Assembly (NCBI RefSeq): GCF_030013595.1
Contig: NZ_CP122768.1
DNA length: 64,000 nt
Reading direction: 5' to 3' (one strand)
DNA from: Escherichia coli
GTDB lineage: Bacteria > Pseudomonadota > Gammaproteobacteria > Enterobacterales > Enterobacteriaceae
The notes under the pieces: generated by a model
What the model saw: only the letters and a program-made list of their open reading frames with translations
Database searches by the model: none
Told to the model about the DNA's origin: nothing
Made by a program: the position numbers and the translations under genes
Shown: positions 12,454 to 48,724 of the stretch, one piece after another
Layout of the letters: every line of letters begins with the position of its first letter
How positions within the stretch are numbered: the first letter of the stretch is position 1

Positions 12454-12567
<114 letters not shown>

Positions 12568-12609
12568 CCCTAATATAATGCCCCCACAATAACACGAGGG
12601 GGTACAACA

Positions 12610-12996
12610 ATGTTCAATATCATGATTCGTAAATTTGGCGAGATGACTTTCGAGAAAGCTGGTGTTGCTCGTACCGAAGAAGAAGCAATGGCCTTAGTTC
12701 TGGTAGCACTGAGATCATCACCTGAGATTATCGACGCTGAATATGTAGCTGCTGAGGGTGAGATTAAAGAGATTAAAGCGGTGGCTAAGGAATTAGGTGT
12801 TAAAGGTTTCCGTAAGCTGAGATTGAATCGTGAGACTTATGTAATTGGACAGCAAGGACAATACCTAGATGAGAATACCGTGATTGTTCTACTGAATAAG
12901 ATTACCCGCTACGGTTGGAAGATTGAGCAATATAAAACGTGTTTCGAATTATACGAAAAAGGTTTGCTGGATACTCTGACCATCGTTCGCGCTTAA
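12610..12996 (+). CDS. Hypothetical prophage protein, 128 aa (first gene inside attL)
   Basis: ORF with SD GAGGGGG 7 nt upstream. No motif recognised. Followed by terminator 13011-13037. Confidence 0.6.
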   Translation: MFNIMIRKFGEMTFEKAGVARTEEEAMALVLVALRSSPEIIDAEYVAAEGEIKEIKAVAKELGVKGFRKLRLNRETYVIGQQGQYLDENTVIVLLNKITRYGWKIEQYKTCFELYEKGLLDTLTIVRA

Positions 12997-13010
12997 TTAA
13001 TTTCTAATTT

Positions 13011-13037
13011 GGTGGGTGTAATTCCCACCGCTTTTTA
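13011..13037 (+). terminator. Rho-independent terminator
   Basis: GGTGGG-tgtaatt-CCCACC followed by GCTTTTT. Confidence 0.7.
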
Positions 13038-13053
13038 AACTGGAGAATCAAAC

Positions 13054-13134
13054 ATGTTAGCTTTTATCTCATTCGTGGGAGGTAGTCTCACAACTATGAT
13101 TAGTCTTTCTTATCTTGTCGTTAGTATGGGGTGA
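13054..13134 (+). CDS. Possible 26-aa hydrophobic peptide
   Basis: Hand translation gives MLAFISFVGGSLTTMISLSYLVVSMG. GGAG lies 8 nt upstream. Below the ORF-track cutoff. Confidence 0.4.
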   Translation: MLAFISFVGGSLTTMISLSYLVVSMG

Positions 13135-13137
13135 GCA

Positions 13138-13263
13138 ATGAAACAATTTCATGATGGCATTTCATCTAAGACATTCAAGAAAGAATATAGCGGATTGTGT
13201 ATTAACTGGATTGATTTGATTGGTGCGGTTGTGTTTGGTCTGGTAATTAGCATCAATTTTTAA
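13138..13263 (+). CDS. Possible 41-aa peptide with C-terminal transmembrane helix
   Basis: MKQFHDGISSKTFKKEYSGLCINWIDLIGAVVFGLVISINF. Starts 3 nt after the previous stop, with a GGGGTGAG SD-like sequence. Confidence 0.45.
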   Translation: MKQFHDGISSKTFKKEYSGLCINWIDLIGAVVFGLVISINF

Positions 13264-13304
13264 CGATATAAATATATCGTAATTCATTCAAAGAGGATTC
13301 AATT

Positions 13305-13646
13305 ATGAAAAAGACTATCTACGCAATTATTGTTTCTGTGTGTGTTGGTGGCATCGGTGGATTTGTTTGTGGGTATGACTATTCCGATACTCAACATCAA
13401 GAGACTATCCGGTCAAATAAGGCCGAGATTAAGGATCTGAATCAGGAGATTAGCCAGTTAGAAAATGCTCTCTCACTCAAAGACAGTGAATATAGCGAGG
13501 TTTATGCAGATAAACAAAAATATTGGAAAGAGAAAGATAATCTCGTTGTTTACGGGATGAAATTGTGTAAGAGCATGAAGGACGAGCGCAGTTGTTTAAT
13601 GGAACTTGCCCTTAAAGGTAACGTGACCATCGACTTCAAAGACTAA
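13305..13646 (+). CDS. Membrane-anchored coiled-coil protein, 113 aa
   Basis: N-terminal hydrophobic helix MKKTIYAIIVSVCVGGIGGFVCG followed by a heptad-like region. SD AAGAGGA. Confidence 0.6.
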   Translation: MKKTIYAIIVSVCVGGIGGFVCGYDYSDTQHQETIRSNKAEIKDLNQEISQLENALSLKDSEYSEVYADKQKYWKEKDNLVVYGMKLCKSMKDERSCLMELALKGNVTIDFKD

Positions 13647-13675
13647 TTAATTCAAATAACAAAGAGGATTCTATT

Positions 13676-13921
13676 ATGAAAAAGATTATCGCTGGTATCG
13701 TTCTTGCTCTGGGTTTGGTTGGTGCTGCAAATGCCGAACAATATGTACAGGGTGATAGTGTCAAGCGTGCTGCCGTTGCACCTTCTTTAAATCAACTGTG
13801 TACTGAATTAGCACAGGTTGCCGGAGTTGGTGACGATGACGACTTTATTACTGCGTGTGTGTGGAGTCATATCGAGGATATTAATAAACGTGATGCAAAA
13901 CTAACTGGAAAGAAATATTAA
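13676..13921 (+). CDS. Small secreted (periplasmic) protein, 81 aa
   Basis: Type-I signal peptide MKKIIAGIVLALGLVGAANA/EQ. SD AAGAGGA identical to the preceding gene. Confidence 0.6.
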   Translation: MKKIIAGIVLALGLVGAANAEQYVQGDSVKRAAVAPSLNQLCTELAQVAGVGDDDDFITACVWSHIEDINKRDAKLTGKKY

Positions 13922-13937
13922 TGACTTACTAACCAAT

Positions 13938-13977: not shown

Positions 13978-13986
13978 GGAAATGGT

Positions 13987-15666
13987 ATGAAAACTAAACT
14001 ATATTCGTATATTCGCTTCTCGTCTATGCGTCAGAATGATGGTTCGAGTTATGAACGGCAAATCAGGATGGCGAGAGAGGTTGCGGCAAAGTATGACCTT
14101 GAACTGGTAAATGATTATCAGGATCTGGGTGTATCTGCGTTTAAGGGTGCTAACTCTAAAACAGGGGCGCTATCTCGTTTCCTTGATGCAATTGGTAGAT
14201 CCGTTCCTGTTGGTAGCTGGCTATTCATTGAAAACTTGGACCGCTTATCCCGTGCCGATATTGTCAGTGCGCAGGAGTTATTCCTTTCAATCATCCGTAG
14301 GGGAATAACCATTGTTACTGGCATGGATAACAAGATCTACTCGCTGGATACTGTTACCGCTAATCCGATGGACCTGATGTTCTCCATCCTTCTATTCATC
14401 CGTGGTAATGAGGAAAGTCAGACTAAGCGCAATCGTACTAACTCAAGCGCATTGATTAAGATTAAAGCTCATCAAGAAAATCCCCAGAATCCGGCAGTGG
14501 CAATCGAGGAAGTTGGAAAGAATATGTGGTGGACTGATACCACATCTGGTTATGTGCTTCCTCATCCGGTCTTCTTCCCTATTGTTCAGGAAGTTGTGGA
14601 ATTACGCAGGAATGGACGGTCAACCGCCGAGATACTGGATCACCTTAACGCGACATACACACCACCACCAGCCGCAAGTCACAAGAGGCATTCAAACTGG
14701 TCACGGGCAATGATTGAAAGGTTGTTCCATACCCGCGCTTTGATTGGTATCAAGGAAATCTCTGTAGATGGCGTTAAGTATGAGTTAAAGGATTATTATC
14801 CTCGTGTGCTAGATGACGCTGAGTTTTATCACCTTAAGAAAAGCATTGGTGTTAGAGCATGTAACTATGGAGACAAGGAAGAAGTTAAACCGATCCCCCT
14901 GCTTAGTGGTGTTAATCTGCTGAAATGTGATCATTGCGGTTCCGCTATGGTTAAGGTGAAAGGAACAAACAGACGGCCTAACCAATATCGTTATTCATGC
15001 GATGCAATGCGCTCTAGTCGTATTGAATGTGTGCATACAAACTGGAGTTTTCGCGGCGACCAATTAGAGAAAGCTGTATTGCAATTGCTGGCTGATAAAA
15101 TCTGGATTGCTGAAGATAAGGCTAATCCGGTTCCGGCTTTGAAAGTACAGATTGATGAAATATCACGCAAGATTGATAACCTGATTGCCCTTTCTGCTAT
15201 GACAGGAGCAACGAAGGAGCTAGCCGATCAGATTACTACCCTCAATAGCGAGCGTGAAACACTCTACAATCAGATCAAGATGGCAGAAGAGGAAATGTAT
15301 TCTGTGGACTCTCAAGGCTGGGAGAAGCTCGCAGAATTTGATTTAGAAGATGTTTACAACGAGGATCGCATTAAGGTCCGGTTTAAGATTAAGCAAGCTC
15401 TAAAACGGATCGGGTGTAGCAGGATTGACAAGTACAAAAACTTGTTTGTACTGGAATACATCGATGGCAAGACCCAGAGAGTTGTAATAGAAAATTCAAG
15501 AGGACCGAGGAAAGGCCGGATCTTCGTTGATTTGAAGACTATCAATGATAGGCAGATTCTGGAGAGTAACGGGCTTGTTCTGCATCCATGTTTAGACATG
15601 CTGACAGATAAGAACTGGAAACCAGAAGAGGAAATACCAGGTCCATTACAGGAATTTGGAATTTAA
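13987..15666 (+). CDS. Large serine recombinase (phage integrase)
   Basis: N-terminal resolvase domain with catalytic-Ser context YSYIRFSSMRQ. Also a recombinase domain, a Cys-rich zinc ribbon (CDHCGS...YSCDAMRSSRIECVH) and a coiled coil. ATG at 13987 is preferred over the TTG at 13972. Confidence 0.85.
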   Translation: MKTKLYSYIRFSSMRQNDGSSYERQIRMAREVAAKYDLELVNDYQDLGVSAFKGANSKTGALSRFLDAIGRSVPVGSWLFIENLDRLSRADIVSAQELFLSIIRRGITIVTGMDNKIYSLDTVTANPMDLMFSILLFIRGNEESQTKRNRTNSSALIKIKAHQENPQNPAVAIEEVGKNMWWTDTTSGYVLPHPVFFPIVQEVVELRRNGRSTAEILDHLNATYTPPPAASHKRHSNWSRAMIERLFHTRALIGIKEISVDGVKYELKDYYPRVLDDAEFYHLKKSIGVRACNYGDKEEVKPIPLLSGVNLLKCDHCGSAMVKVKGTNRRPNQYRYSCDAMRSSRIECVHTNWSFRGDQLEKAVLQLLADKIWIAEDKANPVPALKVQIDEISRKIDNLIALSAMTGATKELADQITTLNSERETLYNQIKMAEEEMYSVDSQGWEKLAEFDLEDVYNEDRIKVRFKIKQALKRIGCSRIDKYKNLFVLEYIDGKTQRVVIENSRGPRKGRIFVDLKTINDRQILESNGLVLHPCLDMLTDKNWKPEEEIPGPLQEFGI

Positions 15667-15727: not shown

Positions 15728-16245
15728 AATTTAATTGCGTTAGGCAGCGTAAGCAAGTTTCATAGTAGTTTCCTCTAAAATAATAAGTTCACTACTATTT
15801 ATCAGAGAAAATTGTCTTACTATTGCATTCTCTATCTGGATGTGGGTATAGGCGGGATTGAATACGGCAAAACTGAAACATTCCACTACTGCAATAAATC
15901 ACTAAACAATATAAAGAATATTGCAAGTGTGGAGTGGAACTAATGCAAGATATTAAAATTCATTTTCAAGATTACAGTTTCGTTAAGGTTGATTGCTCTC
16001 CTTCTATCGGAATGGAATTAAGAGATTATTTCTCGTTTGAGGTTGAAGGGGCTAGGTTTAGCCCCCGTTACAAGTATTCTGGCTGGGATGGACGAATAAG
16101 ACTGTTTACGCATGAAAACACCCTACCAATTGGACTATTAAAAACGTTGGGTGTCTTCGTTAAAAATATGGGCTATTCAGTCTGGATTGACCCCAGATTG
16201 CTTGAGAAGGAAGATGTAACCAAAGACGCGATTAATGAATGGATT

Positions 16246-16254
16246 GATTCCTTA
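16246..16254. repeat. IS1 target-site duplication, left copy (GATTCCTTA)
   Basis: Identical 9-mer at 17023-17031, directly abutting both IS1 ends. Confidence 0.9.
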
Positions 16255-16309
16255 GGTGATGCTGCCAACTTACTGATTTAGTGTATGATGGTGTTTTTGA
16301 GGTGCTCCA

Positions 16310-16585
16310 GTGGCTTCTGTTTCTATCAGCTGTCCCTCCTGTTCAGCTACTGACGGGGTGGTGCGTAACGGCAAAAGCACCGCCGGACATCAGCGCTATC
16401 TCTGCTCTCACTGCCGTAAAACATGGCAACTACAGTTCACTTACGCCGCCTCTCAGCCCGGTACGCACCAGAAAATCATTGATATGGCCATGAATGGCGT
16501 CGGATGTCGCGCCAGTGCACGCATTATTGGCGTTGGCCTCAACACGATTTTCCGCCACTTAAAAAACTCAGGCCGCAGTCGGTAA
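16310..16585 (+). CDS. insA: IS1 InsA
   Basis: 91 aa, [39 protein letters not shown]... Confidence 0.95.
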
Positions 16586-17007
16586 CCTCGCGCATACAAC
16601 CGGGCAGTGATGTGATTGTCTGCGCTGAAATGGACGAACAGTGGGGCTACGTCGGTGCTAAATCACGTCAGCGCTGGCTGTTTTACGCGTATGACAGGAT
16701 GCGGAGGACGGTTGTGGCGCACGTCTTCGGTGAACGCACTCTGGCCACACTGGAGCGTCTTCTGAGCCTGCTGTCGGCCTTTGAGGTCGTGGTATGGATG
16801 ACGGATGGCTGGCCGCTGTATGAATCACGCCTGAAGGGAAAGCTGCACGTTATCAGCAAGCGTTATACTCAGCGCATTGAGCGGCATAACCTGAATCTGA
16901 GACAACATCTGGCAAGGCTGGGACGGAAGTCACTGTCGTTCTCAAAATCGGTGGAGCTGCATGACAAGGTCATCGGGCATTATCTGAACATAAAACACTA
17001 TCAGTAA
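16504..17007 (+). CDS. insB: IS1 InsB' frame (expressed as an InsAB' transposase by -1 frameshift)
   Basis: 167-aa ORF in the -1 frame relative to insA, overlapping it at AAAAAAC. Confidence 0.9.
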
Positions 17008-17022
17008 GTTGGAGTCATTACC

Positions 17023-17031
17023 GATTCCTTA
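17023..17031. repeat. IS1 target-site duplication, right copy (GATTCCTTA)
   Basis: See 16246-16254. Confidence 0.9.
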
Positions 17032-18215
17032 GAAGTGTATTCCGGTAGCAATAAAATCAATCCTTATTGGTATCAAAGGGAGGCAGTCTTTCAGGGTATC
17101 CACAATCGCCGTAGAATGCTGGTTCTTCCTACCAGTGCCGGAAAGTCATTGATTGCTTGTATGCTGTCTCGTTGGTACTTAGAGAACTACACCGGAAAAG
17201 TGTTAATCATTGTTCCGACTACATCGCTAGTGGTTCAAATGAGGGATGATTTCATCGATTATAGGCTATTCCCTTATGAAGCAATTCATACAATGATGAG
17301 TGGTAGCGGGAAACATCCGGGAGACAGGTTAATCACGGTTAGTACCTGGCAATCAGCTTGCAAGATGCCTCCTGAATGGTTCCGACAATATGGAATGTTG
17401 ATAGTTGATGAATCGCATAAGGCTAGTGCCAAAAATATTACCAATATCATCAATGGAATGAATCATTGCCAATTTAAGATCGGCATGACTGGTTCCCCGA
17501 AAGAATCAAAGTGCCATTTAATGCAGTATGTCGGGCTTTTCGGTGATATTTCTAAGATCGTGAGTATTGACCGCCTGATGGAAGAAGGGCAGGTGACAAA
17601 ACTGAAAATTAACTGTCTTTTCCTTCGTTATACAGATGAGGAATGTAGCGCGGTTAAGGGGCGAGAATATGCGGAAGAGATCAAGTATATTACGTCTAAC
17701 CCACGACGAAATAAGTTTGCTTGTAATTTGGCGCTAAAACTAGCTAAGAAGGGCGAAAACGTATTCCTGATGTTCCGCAATACTAAGCACGGAAAACTTA
17801 TGTATGATGCGTTACAGAAGGTACACGACAAGGTTTATTATATTGACGGTGGAGTTAAGACAGAAGAACGTGATGAATTTAAGAAAATGGCGGAGGGTGA
17901 CACCGGGATCATTTGCGTTGCATCCTATGGTGTGTTCTCTACTGGTGTTTCAATTAAGAATTTGCATCATGTTATTTTCGGTCATCCAGTGAAGGAATCA
18001 ACTATCGTTCGTCAGAGTATCGGTCGTGCATTGCGTAAACATGGTTCTAAGGATATTGCAACGGTCTGGGATCTTATAGATCATCTGTGTATATTCGGTC
18101 GTAACGGAAAAGTCAAGCATAAAAATTATGCGGTAAAACATGCACTTGAGAGAATCCGCTATTATCTAACCGACAAGTTCAGCTATGCAACTAAAACAAT
18201 TGCTATATAACAAAA

Positions 18216-18241: not shown

Positions 18242-18595
18242 TTATCCATTCCATCGTGATTTTTTCGATCTGGAATCGATATGCGTAAAGGTTTTATATT
18301 TGCCTAAGCCGTATTGAGTAGGATATTTCCCATCAAGATAAGCATGGACAATATCAGGGGAGACACCCTTGATCACAATGTCAGCCGCACGGCCTCGAAC
18401 GTGATAGCTGTTGGTTGCACCGCCTACATTCTTGTTATGAGTCGGGCAACGGTTGCCACTGTTAATAATCACTGGTTTACCGAAGTGCTCTCGTACATCC
18501 TCAAGAATTACCAGTAATTCAGCGTCGATTGTATCATAATCACATTTTCCGCATTTACATTTAAATTCCTTGCGAGAAAAATGCTTACTTAACAT
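18242..18595 (-). CDS. Endolysin, peptidase M15 (zinc D-Ala-D-Ala/L-Ala-D-Glu peptidase-like)
   Basis: 117 aa. SYHVRGRAAD and FTHID match the H-x6-D...H zinc triad of the M15A family. Last gene of the late operon. Confidence 0.7.
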   Translation of the reverse strand: MLSKHFSRKEFKCKCGKCDYDTIDAELLVILEDVREHFGKPVIINSGNRCPTHNKNVGGATNSYHVRGRAADIVIKGVSPDIVHAYLDGKYPTQYGLGKYKTFTHIDSRSKKSRWNG

Positions 18596-20249: not shown

Positions 20250-23200
20250 TTAAGAAACAGTAATACCGGTAGTTGCTTTTTTAGTTACCATTACCGTTAA
20301 ATCACTGATCCATGTGCTAGGCGTCCAGTTGTTGATTGCGCTTGATTGCACTTCAAAGGTCAAGGTCACAGCACCCTTACCCGCTGGCATATCAATAACA
20401 CCTGAGTAAAGACCAGTATTACCGCCATACGCCCTATTATACAACTCTGACCCATTCTTACGAACAATCAGGCGACAGGTGTCGTAATAGGTATTATTGT
20501 TCGACCCTTCACGCGCTCGCAATCCACCAAAACTAACAGCCGGAATAACGATTTGACGATCGAACTTGTGATCATCTTCAACGCGAACAGTGACCGTACC
20601 TTGTGGATAGCCAGCATAACCATTATCAACGTTAACATCACGATGCGGGAACTTACGTCCAATCACCTTAACGAAATCACCCTTAACCTGAGTAGCTTCA
20701 AGCATACCCTTAATAACACAGCTAGAGTTAATCGTGACGTTGTTCAGAGTACCAGAATCGGCAGTGATATTACCTTTAACGGTTGCATTCATGAACGTAG
20801 CGGACCCGTTCTTGTTGATATGCCATCCGGTAGATCCGTTCCAGTCGGAAGACTGGATATAGTTACCAATTTTAGCGTTATCAATTGCGCCATTTACAAT
20901 CTTGGCGTTGGTGATCGCGCCGTCTTGGATTTTCGCTGAATTGATCGCAGCATTGCCAATTTTAGCCGTGGTGATACTAGCATCAGTAATCTGTGCTGAT
21001 CCGATTGAGGCATTACGAATCATGGCACTGTCGAGATAAACCTTGTTACCTTCGATACCAAACGGGCATACTTCCGATCCGTTCTGTGGAGCTACCGCGA
21101 TTTTATCAGCATTAAAGATGATTCTCGTCGGTTGCGCCGGATCGTTGGTTGCGCTCATGTGAATACCAGCCACGCGACCATCTGCATTAACTGCCAGATT
21201 ATATTTGCTGTTAATGGTTCCTTTCAAAGCATCGATTTTTACATCTGCTTCCTGATTCACGCCAGCAATCTTGCCATCCATTTCTACCCGAACTTGATCA
21301 ATCTTGCTTGCGCTTGCTGCCTCACTGGTAGCAATTGCTTGTTTCAGGGTAGTAGCAGATGCGCTGACTTCGGATTTAATATCGCCTTTCAGTTCAGCTT
21401 TAACCTGATCAATCTTAGTGGAGCTAGCTTGCTCGCTGGTAGCAATCAGACTCTTTAAGGTATTGGCTGAGGCTTGGACCGTCTGCCCTGTTTCGGTAGT
21501 GATTTGCTTATGCATTGCATCAATTTTAGCATCGGCATTAGCGCCAGCTTGAGCAATAGCATCCGCGATAGTTTCATCTAAGCGGTCTTGTAAACCAATC
21601 AGGTCTTCCAGTGCTTCTTTGTCCTGATCGTCCCAGCTAATTGTAGATCTCATTTGCATGAAATAAGGTTCAGACCAAACAGCATCATCCATACCGAAAA
21701 TATCGTAGTGAGCACCACGGATATAATAATCACCGTCAGCAATATCAAAGGAAGTATGGCTAACACTATTCGTGCTTACTGCCCTTGCATCGGAGAAAGT
21801 GTTATCGGTTGCATACTGGATGATTGACCCTGCATAATCATGTTCTACGTCATCTGCCCAGCTAACAAACACACTATTAAAGCCACCACGCGCACTAAAA
21901 CCTTTCATTGGCTTATGTTGTGGGTTGATAGCCACTAAACGCGCTGGGGCGCTCTCTGAGTTGTTATAGCCCTTAGCCGATACTTCTACCGTCAGTTGAC
22001 GCGAAAGGCCGTTAAACTGGTTCATATCAAGCGTATAAGTCCATGATTCAGGATCGCGGGTACGGTACTGAATAGACTTACCAGCCTTGTTAGTCACCTT
22101 GATAATGTATGCTTCAAACAGGTCACTAAACTTGTTAGTTTCACCGTTGATCTCAACATCTAATTGTTGCTGATTTTCCCATTCGATAATCAGATCATTA
22201 CCTTCGAAAGTTCCTGGCGTGCTACCCTGATTTTTGATTCGAATAACCGGAGTCGGCAATTCATAGGTAACAGTCGGATTCTGGTTAATCAGTTCTACCC
22301 ACTCGGAACGAGCAATAATACCGAAAGCACAAACTCGGTAATCATAAGAGCGATCTTTCGCCAGTGCATTGACACTGAAAATTTGCTGTGAAGTCTGTCC
22401 CAGCTTAATCCAGTTAGGCGATCCGCTTACACGGTAATCAATCTGGAAACCATAACGGTTAAAATCTTCCGGTGCATCCCATGTCAAAGTAACGTTTTTA
22501 CCGTAAATCGTCTCACCAGTTGCCTTAATCCTGAAATTAGTAGGCTTCTGTACTGTCATTGAATCCGGTAAACCACTTGGTCTATTGTCTGGAGTTGCCG
22601 CATAGTTCAGGTCAGTATAAACCTGAGAATTATATTCTGTGGCGGTGATAGTCATCATCCCAGCAATACCAGAATCAATCGAGCGATCAATTGCAGTAAT
22701 ACGCCATAAGGAATTATTCAGCTTCAATTCATCATAGGTTACGCTGATAACGTCCCAAACTTCGGCAGTGAATGCGTCAGTAGTCATAAAGCTGATAACC
22801 TGAGTGATACGAGATTTATTTCGCTCAATGCTCGCGAGTTTATCAATCTGATCTTTAGACTTAACAAAACGATATTCAATATCTTTAGCGATAATTCGAC
22901 CATCTTGACGAATAGTAGCATCGTTTTCAGCATCAGCCGGATAACGTAGCATTTGCTCTGAATAGTCAATTGATGGTTCTTGATACATCGCGTTAATGGT
23001 ATTGAAATAACCGTTAGTGCCACCTGTTTTCAGTGATACCTTACCCATCATGATATTGTCTTCATTGAAGGTATGCTTAACAATATCAGGAGCATCCAGT
23101 TTCAGCGTAATACGTCCAAAGGATTCGAACATCACCCCGCCGAAAGTCTGCATAAGATTAGTCAAGTTCTCTTTAAAGCTGGCGTTCGGATCACATGCAC

Positions 23201-24026: not shown

Positions 24027-24445
24027 TATTCACCCCCGAATCTATAAACTTGTTCATAGTCAATGTCTGAAACAGGAATGGTCATCCAGATACCATCTTC
24101 TTCAACGAGGCCATAACCGGAATAATGAGGAACTACGGAATAATAATTACGGTTTCCTAATTTGTGGGCTGTGACCAGTAAGTCGCCGTCCTGTAAATCA
24201 TCAGTGACTAATTTGAAATGTTTCTTAATTGGTTGAAGGATATTTGAATACCCGCTTAATTCTTTGCAGATTTTCAAACCTTCTTCTTTAGTTGAATATT
24301 TTTTATAAAGAGAATTATATAGGTCAGTACCAGCGAGAATATCGATGATCTTACATGCAATTAGATTGCAATCATTCTCACCCTGAACGAACTCCTGACC
24401 TATTAAAGAATTGATGTAATCGGTGATAAGCCTAGTTTTTAGCAT
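24026..24445 (-). CDS. Tail assembly protein, NlpC/P60-like (lambda K-like)
   Basis: Start at MLKTRL (GGAGG 7 nt upstream). Has a GENDCNLIACK catalytic-Cys-like context. Sits directly upstream of the J-like gene. Confidence 0.5.
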   Translation of the reverse strand: MLKTRLITDYINSLIGQEFVQGENDCNLIACKIIDILAGTDLYNSLYKKYSTKEEGLKICKELSGYSNILQPIKKHFKLVTDDLQDGDLLVTAHKLGNRNYYSVVPHYSGYGLVEEDGIWMTIPVSDIDYEQVYRFGGE

Positions 24446-24491
24446 GTTGAATACCTCCATGCTGTTATTTACTAGGCTTAGGGAGAAGGGA

Positions 24492-25705: not shown

Positions 25706-25756
25706 AGAAAAGCCCCCCATAGTTTTATGATTATTTATGACTATGGGGGCTTTTAA

Positions 25757-28111: not shown

Positions 28112-28114
28112 AAA

Positions 28115-28465: not shown

Positions 28466-28494
28466 TTGCCGGAAATAGAAATTCAGAAGCGGGT

Positions 28495-29352: not shown

Positions 29353-29367
29353 TTTTATTACTCCAAT

Positions 29368-29395
29368 AAAAAAGCCCCACCATTAAGGCAGGGCT
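29368..29395 (-). terminator. Rho-independent terminator (module copy 1 of 3)
   Basis: Minus strand reads AGCCCTGCC-ttaat-GGTGGGGCT followed by TTTTTT. Confidence 0.75.
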
Positions 29396-29400
29396 TATAA

Positions 29401-30003: not shown

Positions 30004-30058
30004 AGAATTACCCCTTAATTAAATTGTTATTACGGGGGAACTAGTCCCCCGACTTTTA

Positions 30059-37293: not shown

Positions 37294-37338
37294 TTAATCA
37301 CCTTTAATTAATTGGGGGCATTGCGCCCCCGTTGGTTA

Positions 37339-38850
37339 TTAGGGATCGGCTGGGGAATTTTTTTCTTCACCCTCGCCATCAACGATAATATTTAGTGCGC
37401 TCTTTTCGGCTTGAATCTCTGAGAATACTTTTTCAGGATCATCACCACGTTCAAGAATAACGGCAGTACGTGATTTAAGTCCTTTATCAATTAAAGCAAT
37501 CTCGGCGCTTACGTCTTTAAATGGATCGACGGATTCAAAACGAGGACGAATAATAGTAGTGTTGTCGATAATATGCGGAATTGCAGTAATACGAATCGGA
37601 ACAATACCACGCGCGGAATAATGGCGTAGATATGCTTCGAAAATTGGCAATACCACTGTTTCAATCAATTTGTTTTGCAGTGCTTTAACTCGTGTGCGCT
37701 GGGTTAATTCACCGAAACGTGCGGCTGAGTAGTTGATCTGGCTAGTATCACCAGTCAAGCCCTGTTTAAACACGCCTAAGCCCATTGATACGCTAGTAAA
37801 CATCGCATCATTGAAGCTGTTAAAGTCATCACCGCTTTGCGTCGCCTGGATGCTCTTGATCGTTGCCCCTTCCGGCAATTCCTGAATAGTACCCGGTGCA
37901 AAATCCTGTACTACTTCCGGCGCTTGATATTGTTCATCCTCTTCACCAGTATCAAAATCGTCACCAGAATCTTTCGGACGTTCGATAAAGCCCATAGAAC
38001 TAGCCGCAATACGTTTCTGGACGATCGCAGTTTCGCGGAATGCGTCTTGATGTGCGATATCCTTAATCACTGGCAGGAAATCAGTCACACCACGCAGGGA
38101 TTCAGACGCAAGTGGTTGATAATAATGGAATACTTGCGAAGCATCGACGCGATAGTTATCACCTGTGTAAGTCTGAGTCAGTAGGTTGATTTTACGAAAC
38201 CAATATGCAACAGGGCGCATTGTTTCTACGTCATACTCGATCCCCTGATAGATAGCACGTTCTTTGCTTATTTCACGGTTTAGCGACCAGTCGCACTTAT
38301 CAGCAGACAGGATGGAAACATTTAACTCATTGTTTTCTTTGGTTAAAACGATGAAGCACTCACCACCCATAACGCGCTCACGTTCAGCCATTACCAGCAG
38401 TTCACGGAAGTTAAAGCGACCGTTACGAGAGAAGCGTTTAGCGTTCTGCGCCCACTTCCAGAAAGCATTCTCGATCTGCTTATTCAGTGCGCTATCAAGT
38501 TTGCCATTTGATTTAACGATTGACGGCTTCGGATCTAGGCCAGTACCTACCACCATATCGGTGATGTATTGCGTGTAGCGACTGCCAACGGAAGTGTTTA
38601 AGGCCAGAGTACGACCCTGATCATAAAGGCGCTCACCGTTCGATTTGAGAGCCTTATTGAAGGTTCCTGTAATGGTGTCTTGTTGAAGTGATCCATCAAT
38701 ACGATCACCAACCAGTCCTAAACTACGAGTCGCCAGAGATTTCTGGTATCTTTCTATAGATTTGTCGATGAAAATTTTTGGTTGTTGCTGGCGGTGATTA
38801 GTTTTAACTGGAGTTTCTACCGCCTTTTTGCGTCGAAAAAGATTAAACAT
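37339..38850 (-). CDS. Portal protein (lambda gpB family)
   Basis: 503 aa, positioned between the terminase/W-like genes and the protease-capsid gene. Sequence character resembles lambda-family portals. Confidence 0.75.
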   Translation of the reverse strand: MFNLFRRKKAVETPVKTNHRQQQPKIFIDKSIERYQKSLATRSLGLVGDRIDGSLQQDTITGTFNKALKSNGERLYDQGRTLALNTSVGSRYTQYITDMVVGTGLDPKPSIVKSNGKLDSALNKQIENAFWKWAQNAKRFSRNGRFNFRELLVMAERERVMGGECFIVLTKENNELNVSILSADKCDWSLNREISKERAIYQGIEYDVETMRPVAYWFRKINLLTQTYTGDNYRVDASQVFHYYQPLASESLRGVTDFLPVIKDIAHQDAFRETAIVQKRIAASSMGFIERPKDSGDDFDTGEEDEQYQAPEVVQDFAPGTIQELPEGATIKSIQATQSGDDFNSFNDAMFTSVSMGLGVFKQGLTGDTSQINYSAARFGELTQRTRVKALQNKLIETVVLPIFEAYLRHYSARGIVPIRITAIPHIIDNTTIIRPRFESVDPFKDVSAEIALIDKGLKSRTAVILERGDDPEKVFSEIQAEKSALNIIVDGEGEEKNSPADP

Positions 38851-38860
38851 GATTTACCCC

Positions 38861-39355
38861 TTATCGCGTAAGACGTAATTTGATATTTTTAATCGGACTA
38901 ATTCCCTGTTTACGTCGTTCGGCTTGAATTAATTTAGATAACTGACGTTCATAATCAGTCTTCAATTGCTGGAGAACACCCAATGACTCATAGGCGAAAG
39001 TATTCCCTTTCACGGTCATTTGAGATAATGCGGCTTCGTCCCCAGATAGCCTGGCGAAAATAACTTGCTCGATTACAGAAATCGTTTCGCGCAGATGTTC
39101 TTTTTTGGATTGTTTGGCGAATACTGGCAAAACAGTTAATTCCTGCATTGATACCAGTTCTTCATCAAGAGTAATAACAATGGTCATCTTCCCTTCTGGA
39201 AAGTCTAACGTTTTAATCTCGTGATTTTCCGGTGCATCATCGACCTGATAGACAATGCCTTTGCTATTACCTACCTGAATTGTTACACCCTCTTCATTCG
39301 CAAGCGTGACTTTTTCGCCTTTACGAATTACTAAGGGAATTAGTTCTAAACTCAT
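38861..39355 (-). CDS. Head-tail joining protein, gpW-like C-terminal half with extra N-terminal domain
   Basis: 164 aa, between terminase and portal as lambda W is. The C-terminal helix-rich segment is gpW-like. Confidence 0.45.
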   Translation of the reverse strand: MSLELIPLVIRKGEKVTLANEEGVTIQVGNSKGIVYQVDDAPENHEIKTLDFPEGKMTIVITLDEELVSMQELTVLPVFAKQSKKEHLRETISVIEQVIFARLSGDEAALSQMTVKGNTFAYESLGVLQQLKTDYERQLSKLIQAERRKQGISPIKNIKLRLTR

Positions 39356-39427
39356 AATTACCCCTTATTTAATTGTTATTGGATTAACAATATTTAGGAG
39401 TAAGCCGCCCCGAAGGACGGCGAGTTA

Positions 39428-41332
39428 TTAGAACGATGTTACCCAGCTACGGCCTCTATTTGGGCGTCTGACGATGTTTTGACGTTGTGGTCGTGTGATT
39501 GGCTTAGTTTCTTCGATTTGCTCGTCAGATTGCGATTTAGGAGCTTCTACAGGTTCTTCTGGTTCACGGTTCAAACTATCTTTGATGGCTTCGAGTTTTT
39601 CCCATGACATTTTATTGAGTACATGACGAGAAGCAGCATAGGAATAAGCCAGGCAGTCCAACGCTTCGTTTCGTGTTTGTCCAACTTTTACCCAACGTGT
39701 GGTATTACCCTGCCGTTTCAACTGTTCAGAAAGCAATTGCTCGCAATAGTCATCAGGAACGTCACCAATCTGGAAGACAGTGTGAGGATCGCCATCTCTC
39801 AAGTTCCGGTTAATCATTTCACGGATCATCGTTTTAAGGTTGTTTACGCCCAGAATTTTAAGGGTAAAACCACCCGTTCTTGTGTCTTTTACCGGAAGGA
39901 TTGGTGCATCAACATTGCTTGCGCCTTTAATGGCGGTTAGATTTTGCCACCGACTACAGAATCGATAGATCACGTTTGTAGCTCGTCCGTTCGATGAGTC
40001 CACGAAAGCAGATAACATCGGGATTCGTTCACCGGATCGGGTATAGAATTTAGCTTTCAGGAAGTTGTAAAGCTGGTTATATGCTGGTGATTCGTGGCGT
40101 TCGCAGTTCACATCATAGAATGATCGGTGATCAACTACGCATAGCCCTTTACGAGAAATACCCAGCAAGGTAGATTCCAGACGGTCTTTTTGCTGGTCAA
40201 CTCCACCTACCAGAGCCAGTACATCATCAGGAATATTGTCTAGGCTAATATCAGTTTTCAGCGTTTCTAATTCGTCGGCTGTGCGGTCTTCGTTAAGATC
40301 ATCGAAGGTTTCACCGAGGACTGTATTGTAGAACGTTGCCAGGGACATATTCGCGTAGCTATCAGCAAAGTCCACCACACACGCACGGATAGAACTAAAC
40401 GGAGACATAAGGCGGTTAGCATGAAAACCGATTACTTCCGCGTTTGGTTCGGTGGCGACCCATTCTCCCTGTCCAACAGCACGTAGGCGATCACCCTCGG
40501 TCCAATCGGTTTCACATTCAGGGCAACGGTAAACGGCTGTATCTGGGTTGGGTAATGATTTACCGTTAATCGTATGCCAATCGAAATGTACGTTACTCCA
40601 TTCCATTACGTGCTTGTGTCCGCAATGCTGGCAAACGACATGATATTTTCTCTTATCCGAGAGTTCCCATTGTTGGTTAATCGCCCCATCACGAGCGGTT
40701 GGAGTGGAAGCAATTACGATCCTTGCATCTTCCCCGAAAGTGGTTGCGCGTTGTTCCGCTAGTTGGATCGGGTTCCCTTCGTCTGACTCATCAGCCGCAT
40801 CAACTTCATCAAGAATAATCAAAGGGAGTGTTTTACCGCGAAGATGTGACGGACTATTCAACGACATGAAATACATAAACGATCCGTTACGAAGCTGAAT
40901 AATCGATGAGTTGTTAACGGCATTGCGATCTGATTTGTCGGTGATCATCGCCTTTAATTCTGGTGTTGCCTCTAATACTGGCTTCACCTTACCAGCGATC
41001 CAAGAATTTAGTTCTCTAACGTTACTTTGCAACACCCCAATATTAGTAGGGTTACTCGCGATCCGATGGAAGATAATTCCGTTAAGAATCATGGTCTTAC
41101 CCAACTGTGCCGAACATTTAAACACAATTTTTCTACGGTCTTCGGTGATCGCGTCCATCATTCCACGTTGGAAGGGATGCAATTTAATTAGCGATCCGGC
41201 TTTAACACCATCGGTTGCAACTACATTAGCCTCTACCCATTCGCTAGGTTTCATCGTTTTAGGTGGGCGAATTGCCGCAGAGATATTTTTAAGAATCTTT
41301 TTTAATTTTGCCTTGTTCGAAATCAGTTTCAT
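39428..41332 (-). CDS. Terminase large subunit (lambda GpA family)
   Basis: 634 aa. Walker-A-like CSAQLGKT, DEVD Walker B and CxxC...CxxC (CQHCGH...CPECE), as in GpA-type terminases. Confidence 0.85.
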   Translation of the reverse strand: MKLISNKAKLKKILKNISAAIRPPKTMKPSEWVEANVVATDGVKAGSLIKLHPFQRGMMDAITEDRRKIVFKCSAQLGKTMILNGIIFHRIASNPTNIGVLQSNVRELNSWIAGKVKPVLEATPELKAMITDKSDRNAVNNSSIIQLRNGSFMYFMSLNSPSHLRGKTLPLIILDEVDAADESDEGNPIQLAEQRATTFGEDARIVIASTPTARDGAINQQWELSDKRKYHVVCQHCGHKHVMEWSNVHFDWHTINGKSLPNPDTAVYRCPECETDWTEGDRLRAVGQGEWVATEPNAEVIGFHANRLMSPFSSIRACVVDFADSYANMSLATFYNTVLGETFDDLNEDRTADELETLKTDISLDNIPDDVLALVGGVDQQKDRLESTLLGISRKGLCVVDHRSFYDVNCERHESPAYNQLYNFLKAKFYTRSGERIPMLSAFVDSSNGRATNVIYRFCSRWQNLTAIKGASNVDAPILPVKDTRTGGFTLKILGVNNLKTMIREMINRNLRDGDPHTVFQIGDVPDDYCEQLLSEQLKRQGNTTRWVKVGQTRNEALDCLAYSYAASRHVLNKMSWEKLEAIKDSLNREPEEPVEAPKSQSDEQIEETKPITRPQRQNIVRRPNRGRSWVTSF

Positions 41333-42523: not shown

Positions 42524-43363
42524 TTAGATACCAAAGACAGCAAGTGATCCGGCGTTCTTACGAATCAATGCGGCGGTATTATTAACGATTGCACGAGCAT
42601 TGTTAGGCTGCGGTAATTTCAAAGTTGCTATCGTCTCTTCCTCAATCAAGCCCAATTCAACCAGCACTGGTAAACAGTCAGTTGTGAACTCAAGCTGACC
42701 ATGTGCTGATTGTCGGGCATACATGTAAGCAGGAGGAAGAACATCATAGCCACAAGGCTTACCAGAAGCATCCAGACGGCGCTCAATGTGTTTAGCCTCA
42801 CACAATCCCTTAAGAATACGTTGTACCTTCGTAGAGCCTCGTTTTTCGCCCAATAAGCGGGTTAAGCTGTGCCCGTCAATGGCACGGCGAACATGAAGAT
42901 CAATTAATTGTTCTTTTTCTTCCGCTAAAGTCAGAGCCTTACGAATCCAATCAACTTCGGTCATCTTGCTTGCGTCTGGGAAAGCGTTATTCTTTAATTC
43001 TTCATTTTCTTTCTTCAAACGCTGCCATTCATCAACCAGCATTGCGGTATAAACCGGATCGGTCTGTGCGATAACAATGTAGCTATCACGTTCAGTCAGA
43101 AGATAAACTTCAATTGGTTTGCCTTTACGGCCTAAACGGTCAGTTTTTGACCAAAACGCCACTGGCGGTTTGGTTACAATTTGAGCTTCAACCAGACGAT
43201 CAACCGTTCTCATAATATCGGTGTGACGGTTTTCACGCCCCATTAGTTCAGCAATACGCCAGGTAGAAATTGATAATTCTTTCTCTACAGAGTCATTTGC
43301 AGCAGTCAGGTCAACAGAAGAAGCAGTTTTAACAGCAGTATTCATAGTAGTAACAGTATTCAT
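42524..43363 (-). CDS. Rha-family phage regulatory protein with C-terminal extra domain, 279 aa
   Basis: The region ISTWRIAELMGRENRHTDIMRTVDRL...IEVYLLTERDSYIVIAQ resembles the Phage_pRha domain. Confidence 0.55.
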   Translation of the reverse strand: MNTVTTMNTAVKTASSVDLTAANDSVEKELSISTWRIAELMGRENRHTDIMRTVDRLVEAQIVTKPPVAFWSKTDRLGRKGKPIEVYLLTERDSYIVIAQTDPVYTAMLVDEWQRLKKENEELKNNAFPDASKMTEVDWIRKALTLAEEKEQLIDLHVRRAIDGHSLTRLLGEKRGSTKVQRILKGLCEAKHIERRLDASGKPCGYDVLPPAYMYARQSAHGQLEFTTDCLPVLVELGLIEEETIATLKLPQPNNARAIVNNTAALIRKNAGSLAVFGI

Positions 43364-44094: not shown

Positions 44095-44741
44095 TCTAAT
44101 ATTATTTATAAAGAGAAAATTCTTGTTATTATGAAAGGAGTGATCTGGTAGAGTCCAAAACTGGTCTGTACTTGAAAGGTGATTGGATTCAGTCGGGCAA
44201 AGCCCTCCTTCATGTTTTGATTAAATCATCATCAAAACGAAGAAGTATCTTTAGAATATAAGATCTTTCTTTTGGAGAAATAATAATCAGGAAGCAATTT
44301 GGCAACCGAAGGTTGCAATCCCGAAGGGATAACCAATACCTTTCTAGAAAGTGATTGTTACTCACTTCGTTCGTTTACTAGAATCAGTTATCATCTGGTA
44401 TTAAATCCCTTTCTAAGAAAATCCTTTCAAAAGTGATTCTCGATGCCACGCAGTGGCGTCGCAGACGTTTGGGAGTGAGCGAAGCGAGCGAGCAAACTAG
44501 TTAATTCCTTCTAAGACCATCTAGTATCATCTAGTTTAAATTAGTTGTTACTAGAAGCAATTGGTTGGCGCTTCGCGCAGTCGGGCTAAAGCCCTCCTAA
44601 TTATCTTTTTGGTTATTTGTTGTTTTTAGTTTTACACATGAGCGTAGCGAATGTGTTATATAATATCTATGCACGCCCAATCCCCCGCTTTTTCCCCTCA
44701 CTAAGTTAATGTTTTATAAAGAGTTTTTCTCACCAATCCTT

Positions 44742-44930
44742 TTCGGGGGCAAATTTCAGGGGCAAAAATTAGATTTTCAGGGGCAAAAATAGTGGGTTTC
44801 AGGGGCAAAAATGAGGGGCAAAATCACTGTTTCCCAGAATTTCAGGGGCAAAAATAGTGGGTTTCAGGGGCAAAAATGGGATGTGGAATCTAGGGGATTT
44901 TGGTTCAGGGGCAAAATTCAGGGGCAATTT
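44742..44930 (+). repeat. Iteron array: 9 direct copies of TTCAGGGGCAAAA (7 with a perfect TTCAGGGGCAA core)
   Basis: Copies start at 44742, 44755, 44776, 44798, 44811, 44841, 44863, 44904 and 44917. A 38-bp block at 44776-44813 is repeated exactly at 44841-44878. Confidence 0.9.
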
Positions 44931-44968
44931 TCATAGTGTAGGGCTAGTGTAGGTTTGAAAATCCTTTG

Positions 44969-44997
44969 TTGACACTGTGTAGGATCGGTGGTATACT
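44969..44997 (+). promoter_or_regulatory. Near-consensus sigma70 promoter P1
   Basis: TTGACA (44969-44974), 17-bp spacer, TATACT (44992-44997). A GTGTAGG box lies in the spacer. Confidence 0.65.
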
Positions 44998-45025
44998 TGA
45001 AAATTCGAGATAAATATGTTATAAT
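44997..45025 (+). promoter_or_regulatory. Near-consensus extended -10 promoter P2
   Basis: TTGAAA (44997-45002), 17-bp spacer with TG at 45017-45018, TATAAT (45020-45025). Confidence 0.65.
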
Positions 45026-45029
45026 ATTT

Positions 45030-45409
45030 GTATTGAAAGTGAAAATTTACCGATTTTCCTTCCTATTGTTATCACCGTGTTAAATTGTTATATGTCTGTG
45101 AAGATTTGGATCTGAGAGAAAATCTTGTAACAAATCTTTACAATTCATAGCTCAATTAATGCTCACCGCTTTAGCAAAAAGTGCTATGCCTTTTTCTAAA
45201 TTGATTGAATATACATCAATTTGGTTAAATCGTGTTCTTCGCTTTAGCAATTCGTGCTGTGGTTTAACACATTTAACACGTCTGATAACATCTGAATAAC
45301 ATTTTAACATATCTCTGTTATAAATACATATATAAGAGATAAATGTGAGGGGTTGAAAAATAAAATACAATCCCATATAAATAATAGTGAGCGGTTAACG
45401 CTCTTTTTT
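45030..45409 (+). ncRNA. Putative roughly 380-nt untranslated leader / regulatory RNA ending at a terminator
   Basis: No RBS-preceded ORF lies between the P1/P2 promoters and the terminator at 45389-45409. Contains two CGCTTTAGCA-N5-TGCT hairpin repeats. Confidence 0.3.
45389..45409 (+). terminator. Rho-independent terminator upstream of the 45446 gene
   Basis: GAGCG-gttaa-CGCTC followed by TTTTTT. Confidence 0.75.
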
Positions 45410-45445
45410 AAGAAATCATTAATCCACATTGTAGGAGGATTCGAG

Positions 45446-45628
45446 ATGGCACGACCTGTTAAGTTCACTCGCGAAATCATCTTAGAAATGGCTAAACGCT
45501 ACTTTGAGTTAACGCCGGGTGTGAGAATTGAAGAGTGGTTTAAAAATGAGGGCATCGATAAATCAACCTTTCATAAACTGCTAAAACGATATGACATTAA
45601 AGTGAAGATTGAAGCTACCGTTTGGTAA
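45446..45628 (+). CDS. Small HTH protein, 60 aa (paralogue of 41499-41732)
   Basis: MARPVKFTREIILEMAKRYF...GIDKSTFHKLLKRYDIKVKIE. AGGAGG SD 7 nt upstream. The longer track ORF start was rejected. Confidence 0.65.
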   Translation: MARPVKFTREIILEMAKRYFELTPGVRIEEWFKNEGIDKSTFHKLLKRYDIKVKIEATVW

Positions 45629-45742
45629 TCAACTTTGACTGAGAATTATATGATGGCTTTAAAAAAGAAAAAGCCTCCTTTGCTGCAACAAGGGAGGCTT
45701 GAAATGAACAATTAAAACTAACTTTCCATAGGAGTATTTATA

Positions 45743-46684: not shown

Positions 46685-46779
46685 AAAAAGGGACTCCGAA
46701 GAGTCCCTAGTAAGTTTAGGTTAGGTTTGCACAACAAAGATGAGGTTATAATGAATATAATGCTACATTATTCTTTAAA

Positions 46780-46811
46780 GCCAGAAAAATAACCGCCCCC
46801 TTCGGGGCGGG
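46780..46811 (-). terminator. Rho-independent terminator for the 47903-46969 operon
   Basis: Minus strand reads CCGCCCC-gaag-GGGGCGG followed by TTATTTTTC. Confidence 0.7.
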
Positions 46812-46968
46812 AGGATTAATACTCAATCTATACTTGTTATGTTTTTATGTTGTATAGTCACTGACTATGAAAACACTGTACTGAATGTGTTTTATGGCTT
46901 TTAATCGGGAACTCTCTTTCGAAAATTCCCTGTTAAAACCACATAAGGAGAAAAGGCAGATTACAATA

Positions 46969-47253
46969 TTATTTAGTCTGTTTGAAAACGAACGTTAAAA
47001 ATTCGATTAAGCAATATACCCAAAGTACGGTCAGCATCAAATGCATAGCAATAGTTGGATGGAAGTTAAAAAGTGTCATACTAACTAGGCCAACAATATA
47101 AGAAATTCCTTCGACAATTAACGCAAGGCTAGCAAATGCAACAAACGCACCTAAGAATAATTCGCCTCGTTCTTTCGGTTCGGTTCCGAGTTTATAAGCA
47201 GAGATAGCAGCCAGAATAGTAATGATGACAGCATAGGTAATAAAAGTAGCCAT
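46969..47253 (-). CDS. Small polytopic membrane protein, 94 aa
   Basis: Three predicted hydrophobic helices. AAGAGGA SD. Confidence 0.6.
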   Translation of the reverse strand: MATFITYAVIITILAAISAYKLGTEPKERGELFLGAFVAFASLALIVEGISYIVGLVSMTLFNFHPTIAMHLMLTVLWVYCLIEFLTFVFKQTK

Positions 47254-47345
47254 AGTTTTATATCCTCTTAAAAGTTAAGCGGGGGATGTTCTCCCCCGTA
47301 GACGTTGACCATCAACATCTTTCATACATTTATTTATAACGCGTT

Positions 47346-47903
47346 TTAAGACACATCAAATTCATCGTCTTCTTCTGGTTCTTGTTCTTCCGGTTCATCC
47401 ATTAATGGTAATTCTTCTTCCTCGTCTTCTCCCAAATCTGCATTTTCGAACAAGTCCCCTACTTCATTTAAACGACGCTCGATGATCTCCCTTAGCTTAT
47501 TCTTTAATGTTTTCTGGTCATTGGCAGATTCGAGAATTTCTAGGGCATCGATCGTACAAATCTGCAAAATAGTCTGCTTCACTTTCCCGCAATATTCCGC
47601 TAGTTGCTGTTCTACATAACCGACAGGAATCAGGAGGTTCATTTTTTCCTGATTCTCTCGTTCGGCTGCATCTGCCATTGCTCTTTCTCTGCGGAGACGT
47701 TCTTGATCAATCGCTTCTTTGATTGAAGTTTGTTTAAGTGGGTTAATTACGTTCTTTAGCACCCAATCGCAACCTTCCTTTGCCGGAACACGCCTCTTAT
47801 TGGTATTGTAAGGTAGTCCCCTTTCTAACCATCGCTTACCGCCACCATTCAATGTATAGCCATATAAACGGGAAATTTCTGTAAGGGTTAATTCTTCTTT
47901 CAT
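47346..47903 (-). CDS. Nu1-like terminase small subunit candidate (N-terminal wHTH, central coiled coil, acidic tail), 185 aa
   Basis: The N-terminus LTLTEISRLYGYTLNGGGKRWLERGLP and the ERLRRERAMADAAERENQEKMNLLIPV segment resemble Nu1/TerS architecture. The gene is not adjacent to the large subunit. Confidence 0.45.
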   Translation of the reverse strand: MKEELTLTEISRLYGYTLNGGGKRWLERGLPYNTNKRRVPAKEGCDWVLKNVINPLKQTSIKEAIDQERLRRERAMADAAERENQEKMNLLIPVGYVEQQLAEYCGKVKQTILQICTIDALEILESANDQKTLKNKLREIIERRLNEVGDLFENADLGEDEEEELPLMDEPEEQEPEEDDEFDVS

Positions 47904-48350
47904 TGGTTATCCTCCATTAAATTTGCGTAATTTTATTTATTGGTTTTACGCAAAATCTAAGCGCCTAAATCGCATTCTAACGAAGGGAAAGATCCAGTAA
48001 TGGTAAGGGCTAGGAAGTGGGTTAATAGTCGCGTAGCGACCGCGCTAGGACTGCACTGATCACGTTTTAAAATCTCACACGCACATCAAAAACCGGGGTG
48101 CCGAAAACTCGCTTTATCTGACCCCGATCCAGAACCTAAATCATTTGTCAAGTCTTTCCGATTCAGTAAAGGGGAACATGCATCTAAGCTAGAGAAGCTC
48201 ATAAAGACTAAGTATGAATGCGGTGTTGTTAGTCGGGATGATATGCGAGACGGTTACACTGAAACGCTACCATTTGAAGCATTGCCGGAGATCATCACTA
48301 TCACCAACAAAATGATAAGCGAAAGCATCCTCGTAAGTAATTGATTCCTA

Positions 48351-48378
48351 AGCCCTGTCCTTGTGATGGGGCTTTTTT
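48351..48378 (+). terminator. Possible plus-strand terminator just inside attR
   Basis: AGCCCT...GGGGCT followed by TTTTTT. Confidence 0.45.
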
Positions 48379-48394
48379 ATTGGAAAAATTTTAG

Positions 48395-48724
48395 TTATTG
48401 GGGTTTACAACATTTAGGTTTGCCAATTCGTCTGGCTAACTCTTGCTGAGTGATTTCTGACTGTAAAAAAGCATTTAACAGCAATACCTTAGAGGCGACA
48501 CTCAAAGGCACTTCAATAAAGTGATCGTGACTATTTAATGGCGAAGGTAACGGGATAAGCTCGTTATCTTCAAAATAAAAATCAAATGCGGTCAGTAAAG
48601 CATCTTTTGCCGCTTCCATCGCTTCAGCAACTGTTTCGCCCTGGGTCAACGCTTCAGGGATATCCACAAAAGAAACCATATAACCGCCTTCCGGCGCGGG
48701 TGTAAGAGTGACGGGATAACGCAT
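48395..48724 (-). pseudogene. hicB: 5' part of hicB fused to 5 phage-derived codons (HicB residues 1-104 plus CCKPQ-stop)
   Basis: MRYPVTLTPAPEGGYMVSFVDIPEAL...ELARRIGKPK, then CCKPQ and TAA at 48395-48397. The HTH recognition helix and C-terminus are missing. Confidence 0.85.
48413..48421. repeat. attR core TTTAGGTTT
   Basis: See attL. hicB sequence resumes at 48413. Confidence 0.85.

Follow-up and report, generated by a model that had tools for sequence, protein, structure and literature searches.

Why is the antitoxin gene hicB of an Escherichia coli chromosome found in two pieces, can the division be undone, and what became of the toxin-antitoxin pair hicAB to which it belongs? The locus lies on contig NZ_CP122768.1 of assembly GCF_030013595.1, in a stretch of 64,000 nucleotides (nt) that we refer to as the window and whose positions serve as coordinates throughout. 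Between the two pieces of hicB lies an element of 35,854 bp. Our answer, which we consider very probable, is that this element is a temperate siphovirus-type prophage that was put into hicB by its own large serine recombinase (LSR) with the crossover at a TT dinucleotide, that the truncated antitoxin (HicB') would still neutralise the toxin HicA while the promoter P2 would be derepressed, and that excision of the prophage would restore hicB.

A first-pass annotation of the window had already proposed a prophage with precise ends inside hicB, and the flanks, the empty site and the gene content all agree with it. The 9-mer TTTAGGTTT has exactly two copies in the window (12559-12567 and 48413-48421), one at each junction, and their spacing is the reported 35,854 bp. 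The repeat pair alone is weak evidence: in 16 out of 100 shuffles we also found at least two copies of TTTAGGTTT. As the repeat is not significant in the shuffles, it is the flanks and not TTTAGGTTT that decide the prophage boundaries. When the flanks were joined (...12567 to 48422..., keeping one copy of the repeat) we obtained a single minus-strand open reading frame (ORF), MRYPVTL...ARRIGKPKQEITRLFNLHH...SLVMV, which reads ...ELARRIGKPKQEITRLFNLHH...SLVMV across the junction. The rebuilt protein of 138 aa shows 100% identity to HicB of E. coli K-12 (PDB 6HPB chain B), so the flanks do rejoin as an uninterrupted hicB. Translation of the window likewise gave the expected end of the interrupted copy, ...GKPKCCKPQ*. 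The 3' fragment of hicB left at attL (12454-12567, minus strand) was defined by the joined-flank translation and runs from codon 102, whose third base is host-derived here, to codon 138 and the stop; it is identical to 6HPB_B, and in lysogens the NCBI annotation pipeline (PGAP) describes it as 'hicB, missing N-terminus'. Both hicB halves are undamaged in the window. From the alignment of lysogen and empty-site junctions and from the symmetry of attP, we placed attL at 12543-12592 (host left half-site and phage right half-site, inferred crossover TT at 12566-12567) and attR at 48372-48445 (phage left half-site and host right half-site, inferred crossover TT at 48420-48421).

To compare the locus with other strains we used a 131-bp probe over the rebuilt junction and found it to be contiguous in 5281 (∼97%) of 5426 complete E. 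coli genomes. The empty site expected from strains with an intact hicB is thus confirmed. An earlier count of 4218 genomes, obtained with a 609-bp probe, reflects the polymorphic spacer between hicB and ydcR and not occupancy, and was replaced by the count given above. The attL junction recurs in 30 genomes; that of attR, together with a conserved ∼80-bp arm of the phage, recurs in ∼34. Overall, a related prophage occupies the same position of hicB in ∼30-40 genomes, and lysogens account for ∼0.6% of the genomes; PGAP annotates the two hicB halves around their prophage as pseudogene fragments. The capsid-portal module is present in 48 of the 5426 genomes. The contrary case named in the first-pass annotation was a hicB that naturally ends in ...GKPKCCKPQ with no phage beside it; no genome had a hicB ending ...CCKPQ without an adjoining phage arm. 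Two loci hold remnants at the same hicB site (L007, NZ_OY856299, and L008, NZ_AP027619; strains EC7072022BGR with ∼5.5 kb and PSJ-07 with ∼14 kb). The PSJ-07 remnant contains the insertion sequences IS1, IS903B and IS421 and has no annotated integrase. In strains with such decayed remnants hicB is probably split for good. In strain C325 (NZ_CP124819.1) attL and attR are ∼205 kb apart and on opposite strands, which points to an inversion of the chromosome that has one of its ends in the prophage.

The position of the crossover can be narrowed down further with the help of natural variation. We reconstructed attP as ...GTTATTGGGGTTTACAACATTTAGGT-TT-CCCTAATATAATGCCCCCACAATAAC... and attB in hicB as ...CTCCTGTTTAGGT-TT-GCCAATTCGTCTGG..., and among the lysogens we encountered two attP variants, the type of the window (...ACAACATTTAGGT-TT-CCCTAATAT...) and that of DEC5A (...GACTACATTCGGG-TT-GCCTAATATC...). 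At attR position 7 of the 9-mer tracks the phage variant (T or G), and at attL the base just past position 9 does the same (C or G). On both sides, host bases are seen in the empty site of a sister O55:H7 strain. By this comparison, the variant bases at attR position 7 and past attL position 9 confine the exchange to TT, positions 8-9 of the 9-mer. Dyad symmetry in attP is likewise best when centred on this TT, which makes 12 of the 24 arm positions complementary (inner TTAGG/CCTAA, outer GTTATTG/CAATAAC). Judged from these alignments, the predicted functional core is the 2-bp TT, and the remainder of the 9-mer would be a similarity between attP and attB particular to this phage variant. A centre of this kind is what the 2-bp staggered cut of a serine recombinase would predict.

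The enzyme that this explanation calls for is encoded 1420 bp from attL. The gene (13987-15666, plus strand) specifies a protein of 559 aa with three domains of an LSR, Resolvase (PF00239, E 1e-14), Recombinase (PF07508) and Zn_ribbon_recom (PF13408), which bears out the earlier description of a 559-aa large serine recombinase 1.4 kb from attL. It had also been called the only recombinase. It is indeed the only integrase in the element, but a transposase, which is not an integrase, also lies inside as part of an IS1 copy (16255-17022). We found no tyrosine integrase among the ORFs scanned with Pfam, which left out a few small ones, or in the PGAP annotation of the relatives, and rejected that reading. 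The protein carries a YIRFSS motif, and in an alignment of 25 homologues R10 is invariant, S12 is nearly invariant and the zinc-ribbon cysteines C314, C317, C338 and C348 are invariant. When the integrase was searched as a single sequence against the PDB (phmmer) nothing matched, and the 25-sequence profile was therefore needed; with this family profile the A118, phiC31 and TP901-1 integrases in the PDB were matched. The AlphaFold (AF2) model, with a mean predicted confidence (pLDDT) of 77, comprises the catalytic domain, a long E helix, the recombinase domain and a zinc ribbon with a coiled-coil pair, formed by the paired helices 382-406 and 410-437 that follow the ribbon. The model can be aligned over its full length with cryo-EM structures of serine integrase-att complexes (E ∼1e-15), and the fold also matches the TP901-1 and gamma-delta catalytic domains. 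Homologues with at least 92% identity come from E. coli and Shigella, those with 60-74% from Salmonella, E. fergusonii and Edwardsiella, and all are named merely 'recombinase family protein'. In the portion of the supplementary files of a published LSR survey that was accessible (PMC10083194), neither the integrase nor its att sites had a match. We found no candidate for a recombination directionality factor among the small ORFs beside int, which have no informative family.

At the protein level the insertion truncates the host's antitoxin. In the rebuilt HicB the HicB_lk_antitox domain covers residues 3-67 and the helix-turn-helix (HTH) domain HTH_3 residues 88-134, and TT falls in codon 102, which belongs to the turn preceding the recognition helix. 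The interrupted gene (48395-48724, minus strand) encodes a HicB' of 109 aa, made up of HicB residues 1-101, the hybrid codon 102 and the phage-encoded tail PKCCKPQ before the stop; it keeps HicB_lk_antitox and loses HTH_3. With the other attP variant the tail reads PNVVNPK. The toxin gene hicA (48770-48946, minus strand; PF07927 HicA_toxin) is intact, and lysogens and non-lysogens have the same protein accession. All 11 lysogens examined had an intact hicB' ORF of 109 aa, and nine of them an intact hicA, one of the nine being the PSJ-07 remnant, from which we infer that disruption of hicB is tolerated. Published work describes that the N-terminal domain of HicB neutralises HicA independently of the DNA-binding domain, that the commonest HicB classes have no DNA-binding domain, that the HTH of E. 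coli HicB mediates dimerisation and repression of promoter P2, and that the P2 transcript gives HicB and not HicA (PMC10865869; PMC11594946). As neutralisation and autoregulation are separate functions of HicB in these reports, HicB' probably still neutralises HicA, and P2 is probably derepressed in the lysogen, which would raise the supply of antitoxin.

The sequence of events would then be as follows. The integrase recombines attP with attB in hicB and would do so through a staggered cut at the central TT in codon 102. Integration would leave the 109-aa HicB', which retains the HicA-neutralising partial-RNase-H domain and has lost the recognition helix and the dimerisation strand. Loss of operator binding would derepress P2 and lead to more HicB, so that the lysogen would be viable with an intact hicA. 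Excision by the integrase together with a directionality factor would rebuild the wild-type hicB exactly, and the element is presumably able to excise.

That the element is a phage follows from its content. Its GC content is 39-44% compared to 47-52% in the flanks, its length without IS1 and the target duplication is ∼35.08 kb, and within the precise boundaries we found a complete siphovirus-type set of packaging, head, tail and lysis modules, in which all structural, packaging and lysis ORFs are intact. This full set of virion genes rules out a satellite or island. No isolated phage is close at the nucleotide level: no record of the phage collection covers more than ∼10% of the 23.4-kb left part that was searched. 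The best match of the capsid protein is 43% (Escherichia phage DCP80), and for the integrase it is 30% among isolated phages. The prophage belongs to an undescribed, temperate enterobacterial phage lineage.

Members of this lineage are not restricted to hicB. Phages with the same backbone, whose integrases are 69-73% identical, are inserted in the genes codB and ycdX. In the codB clade (L003-L005, junction near 4946-4989), which was found on contigs of public assemblies and whose integrase cluster is named for E. fergusonii, a truncated permease gene adjoins codA. In the ycdX clade from Salmonella (L002, 4332-4712) a 3' fragment of ycdX is left beside ycdY. The pattern suggests that divergence of the integrase tracks the change of target gene, and with the codB and ycdX relatives intragenic targeting becomes a habit of the lineage. 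An intragenic attB is the norm for serine-integrase elements in general (PMC10083194). The first-pass annotation had regarded an antitoxin gene as an unusual attB. This stands in so far as we found no report in the literature of hicB, or of any chromosomal E. coli antitoxin gene, in this role, but not with regard to the intragenic position.

Several well-studied elements provide a basis for comparison. The Listeria phages A118 and phi10403S in comK (PDB 4KIS) are likewise temperate siphoviruses with a large serine integrase and an intragenic site that is rebuilt on excision. The recombinase and zinc-ribbon domains of 4KIS were matched by the family profile of the window integrase with E 9e-14 and the fold matches too, although identity to the A118 integrase is ∼13-15% over the fold alignment. 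In contrast to the comK prophages, the element here lives in a Gram-negative enterobacterium and occupies an antitoxin gene, and there is no indication of regulated excision. The Bacillus elements SPbeta (SprA/SprB) in spsM and skin in sigK also depend on serine recombinases, split a host gene and restore it exactly, and their excision needs a directionality factor. Their excision is developmentally programmed, however, whereas nothing of the kind is apparent for the hicB prophage, whose split target gene probably retains its core function. The likeness to skin, SPbeta and the comK prophage drawn in the first-pass annotation therefore stands for the host ORF, which can be restored exactly at the sequence level; beyond this it is a resemblance. 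The integrases of phiC31 and Bxb1 have the same domain architecture, a 2-bp central crossover and att sites of ∼40-50 bp; the phiC31 integrase-att complex and other complexes of this type were matched in the fold search with E 1e-14 to 1e-15, but the sequences are very distant and the att sites unrelated. The closest integrases of isolated phages are the YbcK-type LSRs of lambdoid E. coli phages (e.g. Perceval) and gp53 of Burkholderia phage Bcep176, with ∼30% identity and other phage backbones. The capsid module resembles that of RcCronus, phiHAP-1, VP882 and DCP80 in its fused prohead protease-HK97 capsid protein (DCP80 43%, the others ∼30%), and the tail hub domains are of the phiJL001 type; none of these phages has a genome that is related at the nucleotide level. 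The element is mechanistically of the same kind as A118/comK, SPbeta/spsM, phiC31 and Bxb1, and it shows each feature of the LSR family that could be examined. The event is thus an ordinary one, and what is new is an undescribed phage lineage together with a target gene that was previously unreported.

A number of observations weigh against the explanation given at the outset. The symmetry of attB around TT is weak and the TT centre is outside the five best. Two of the 11 lysogens (L007 and L009) share a 22-bp deletion in hicA between TGCG direct repeats and carry different attP variants, and the shared deletion could mean that HicB' is not always sufficient. The deletion may have arisen more than once or been inherited within a lineage. 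The predicted attP junction was absent from IMG/VR in two scans, where absence does not equal inactivity, and a metagenome scan for it returned 66 chance matches, none of which matched the attP flanks by BLAST. Finally, IS1 together with a possibly decayed gene at the right end could have impaired this copy. IS1 (16255-17022, plus strand, 768 bp, recognised from its sequence and an InsB-like ORF at 16504-17007) is flanked by a 9-bp target duplication, GATTCCTTA, at 16246-16254 and 17023-17031, and cuts a gene for a UvsW-like helicase in two. The 5' part (15943-16254, plus strand; PF21241 UvsW_N) is identical at 104/104 positions to the intact 496-aa gene product in L003, the 3' part (17032-18210, plus strand; ResIII, Helicase_C) at 387/391 positions to residues 106-496 of the same helicase. 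At the right end no long ORF is present at 47923-48345, where the relative L009 has a gene for a GIY-YIG nuclease; this segment may be a decayed GIY-YIG homing-endonuclease gene.

These last observations lead to the strongest of the rival explanations, namely that the prophage integrated as described, then lost its lytic cycle or excision and now leaves hicB permanently split. The cut helicase gene and the missing nuclease ORF both speak for such a loss, as do the clear remnants at the same site in EC7072022BGR (∼5.5 kb) and PSJ-07 (∼14 kb, three IS elements, no annotated integrase) and the fact that the attP form was not found in the virome and metagenome collections. The helicase gene, however, is part of a variable accessory region, and it is missing in the relatives L001 and L006. 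Because these relatives do without it, it is probably accessory and dispensable. The integrase has its full length and shares 99% identity with those of the relatives, the structural, packaging and lysis ORFs are intact and neither half of hicB is damaged. We therefore consider a permanently grounded prophage possible, though on the unlikely side.

It could also be asked whether hicB was chosen for a reason. A HicB that is unregulated and has no DNA-binding domain might disarm or re-tune an abortive-infection defence based on HicA. An anti-phage role has been suggested for HicA systems (PMC10865869), HicB loses only its regulatory and dimerisation domain through the cut, and hicB' always has 109 aa across both attP variants. 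Yet defence genes and their surroundings were not enriched among the LSR targets of a published survey (PMC10083194), the chromosomal hicAB of E. coli has no demonstrated role against phages, and a sequence conserved in 97% of the genomes is reason enough for the choice of attB. Adaptive targeting hence appears improbable to us. We give similarly little credence to the proposal that integration turns HicAB from a self-regulated and possibly defensive module into one that is constitutively buffered, with an altered response to superinfection or stress that is reversible on excision; if it were true, the prophage would be an operated switch on a toxin-antitoxin system. Least probable of all is an 'active lysogeny', in which conditional excision without lysis restores HicB and so controls the autoregulation of hicAB, as with the comK, spsM and sigK elements: the intragenic attB, an ORF that can be reconstituted exactly and a directional serine integrase are hallmarks that it has in common with those elements, but we saw no sign of regulated excision, HicB' probably retains its neutralising function so that restoration gains little, the relatives in the unrelated genes codB and ycdX point to a family habit rather than to hicB-specific biology, and lysogens make up only ∼0.6% of the genomes, some of them with remnants.

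The remaining genes of the prophage complete the description of the lineage. Next to attL lies a gene for a protein of 128 aa with no assigned function (12610-12996, plus strand; phrog_14908), which is kept beside attL and int in relatives and adjoins int in L003-L005. Two small ORFs beside the integrase at 13305-13921 encode 113 and 81 aa, and the 81-aa ORF is kept beside int in the sister phages. From their N-terminal sequences both products appear to have a signal peptide or membrane anchor, and they may be lysogenic-conversion genes. To the right of the helicase gene we found a candidate endolysin (18242-18595, minus strand; Peptidase_M15_3) and, also on the minus strand and assigned by domain matches, a GpJ-like tail tip protein of 1258 aa (20250-24026; Phage_Tail_Tip, Ig_GpJ_C) and a distal tail module (24026-28803) with a DUF6950 protein, a hub-like protein (phiJL001 Gp84_N), a 784-aa ORF and the tail assembly chaperones. 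The 784-aa ORF is taken as the tape measure by its length and position only, as it has no family match. The following region (28846-33520, minus strand) encodes a gp38-like adhesin, the tail tube protein and a side tail fibre of 1153 aa with T4-like gp34/gp37 segments (Gp38_N, Phage_TTP_11, Gp34_trimer, Peptidase_S74). The tail fibre has ∼80% nucleotide identity to gp37 of Phi1/RB49-like phages and is the sole match to isolated phages at the nucleotide level. T4-like fibre parts in a temperate siphovirus point to an exchange of modules with virulent T-even-like phages. In DEC5A a gene with a NUMOD3 domain is inserted between tail genes. A head-tail connector is also among the prophage genes, and a 91-nt tRNA-Gln predicted by ARAGORN at 34586-34676 lies inside a head-tail ORF and is likely a false positive. 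The head and packaging module (35287-41332, minus strand) consists, by domain matches, of the fused prohead protease-major capsid protein (668 aa, HK97), a lambda-family portal and a gpA-type large terminase. A Rha-like regulator (42524-43363, minus strand) is supported by a weak Phage_pRha match and by the annotation 'Rha family' in L001. Within a stretch poor in ORFs (44100-45700) there is an iteron-like array at 44742-44930 with several direct copies (approximately ten by eye) of TTCAGGGGCAAAAAT, which could be an origin, a partition site or an array for regulator binding. Rfam at gathering thresholds had no match in 12000-49500, including this array.

Characterised large serine integrases come mostly from Gram-positive phages. 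The locus provides an E. coli-native serine integrase with predicted attP, attB and crossover dinucleotide, an orthogonal enzyme and potentially a useful tool, and it documents an undescribed temperate enterobacterial lineage whose integrases have diverged onto hicB, codB and ycdX. Interest would rise further only if the disruption of hicB mattered for defence or stress physiology. The lysogens also constitute a natural experiment, with dozens of strains that combine an intact toxin gene with an antitoxin lacking its DNA-binding domain, and they fit the published view that neutralisation by HicB is separable from autoregulation.

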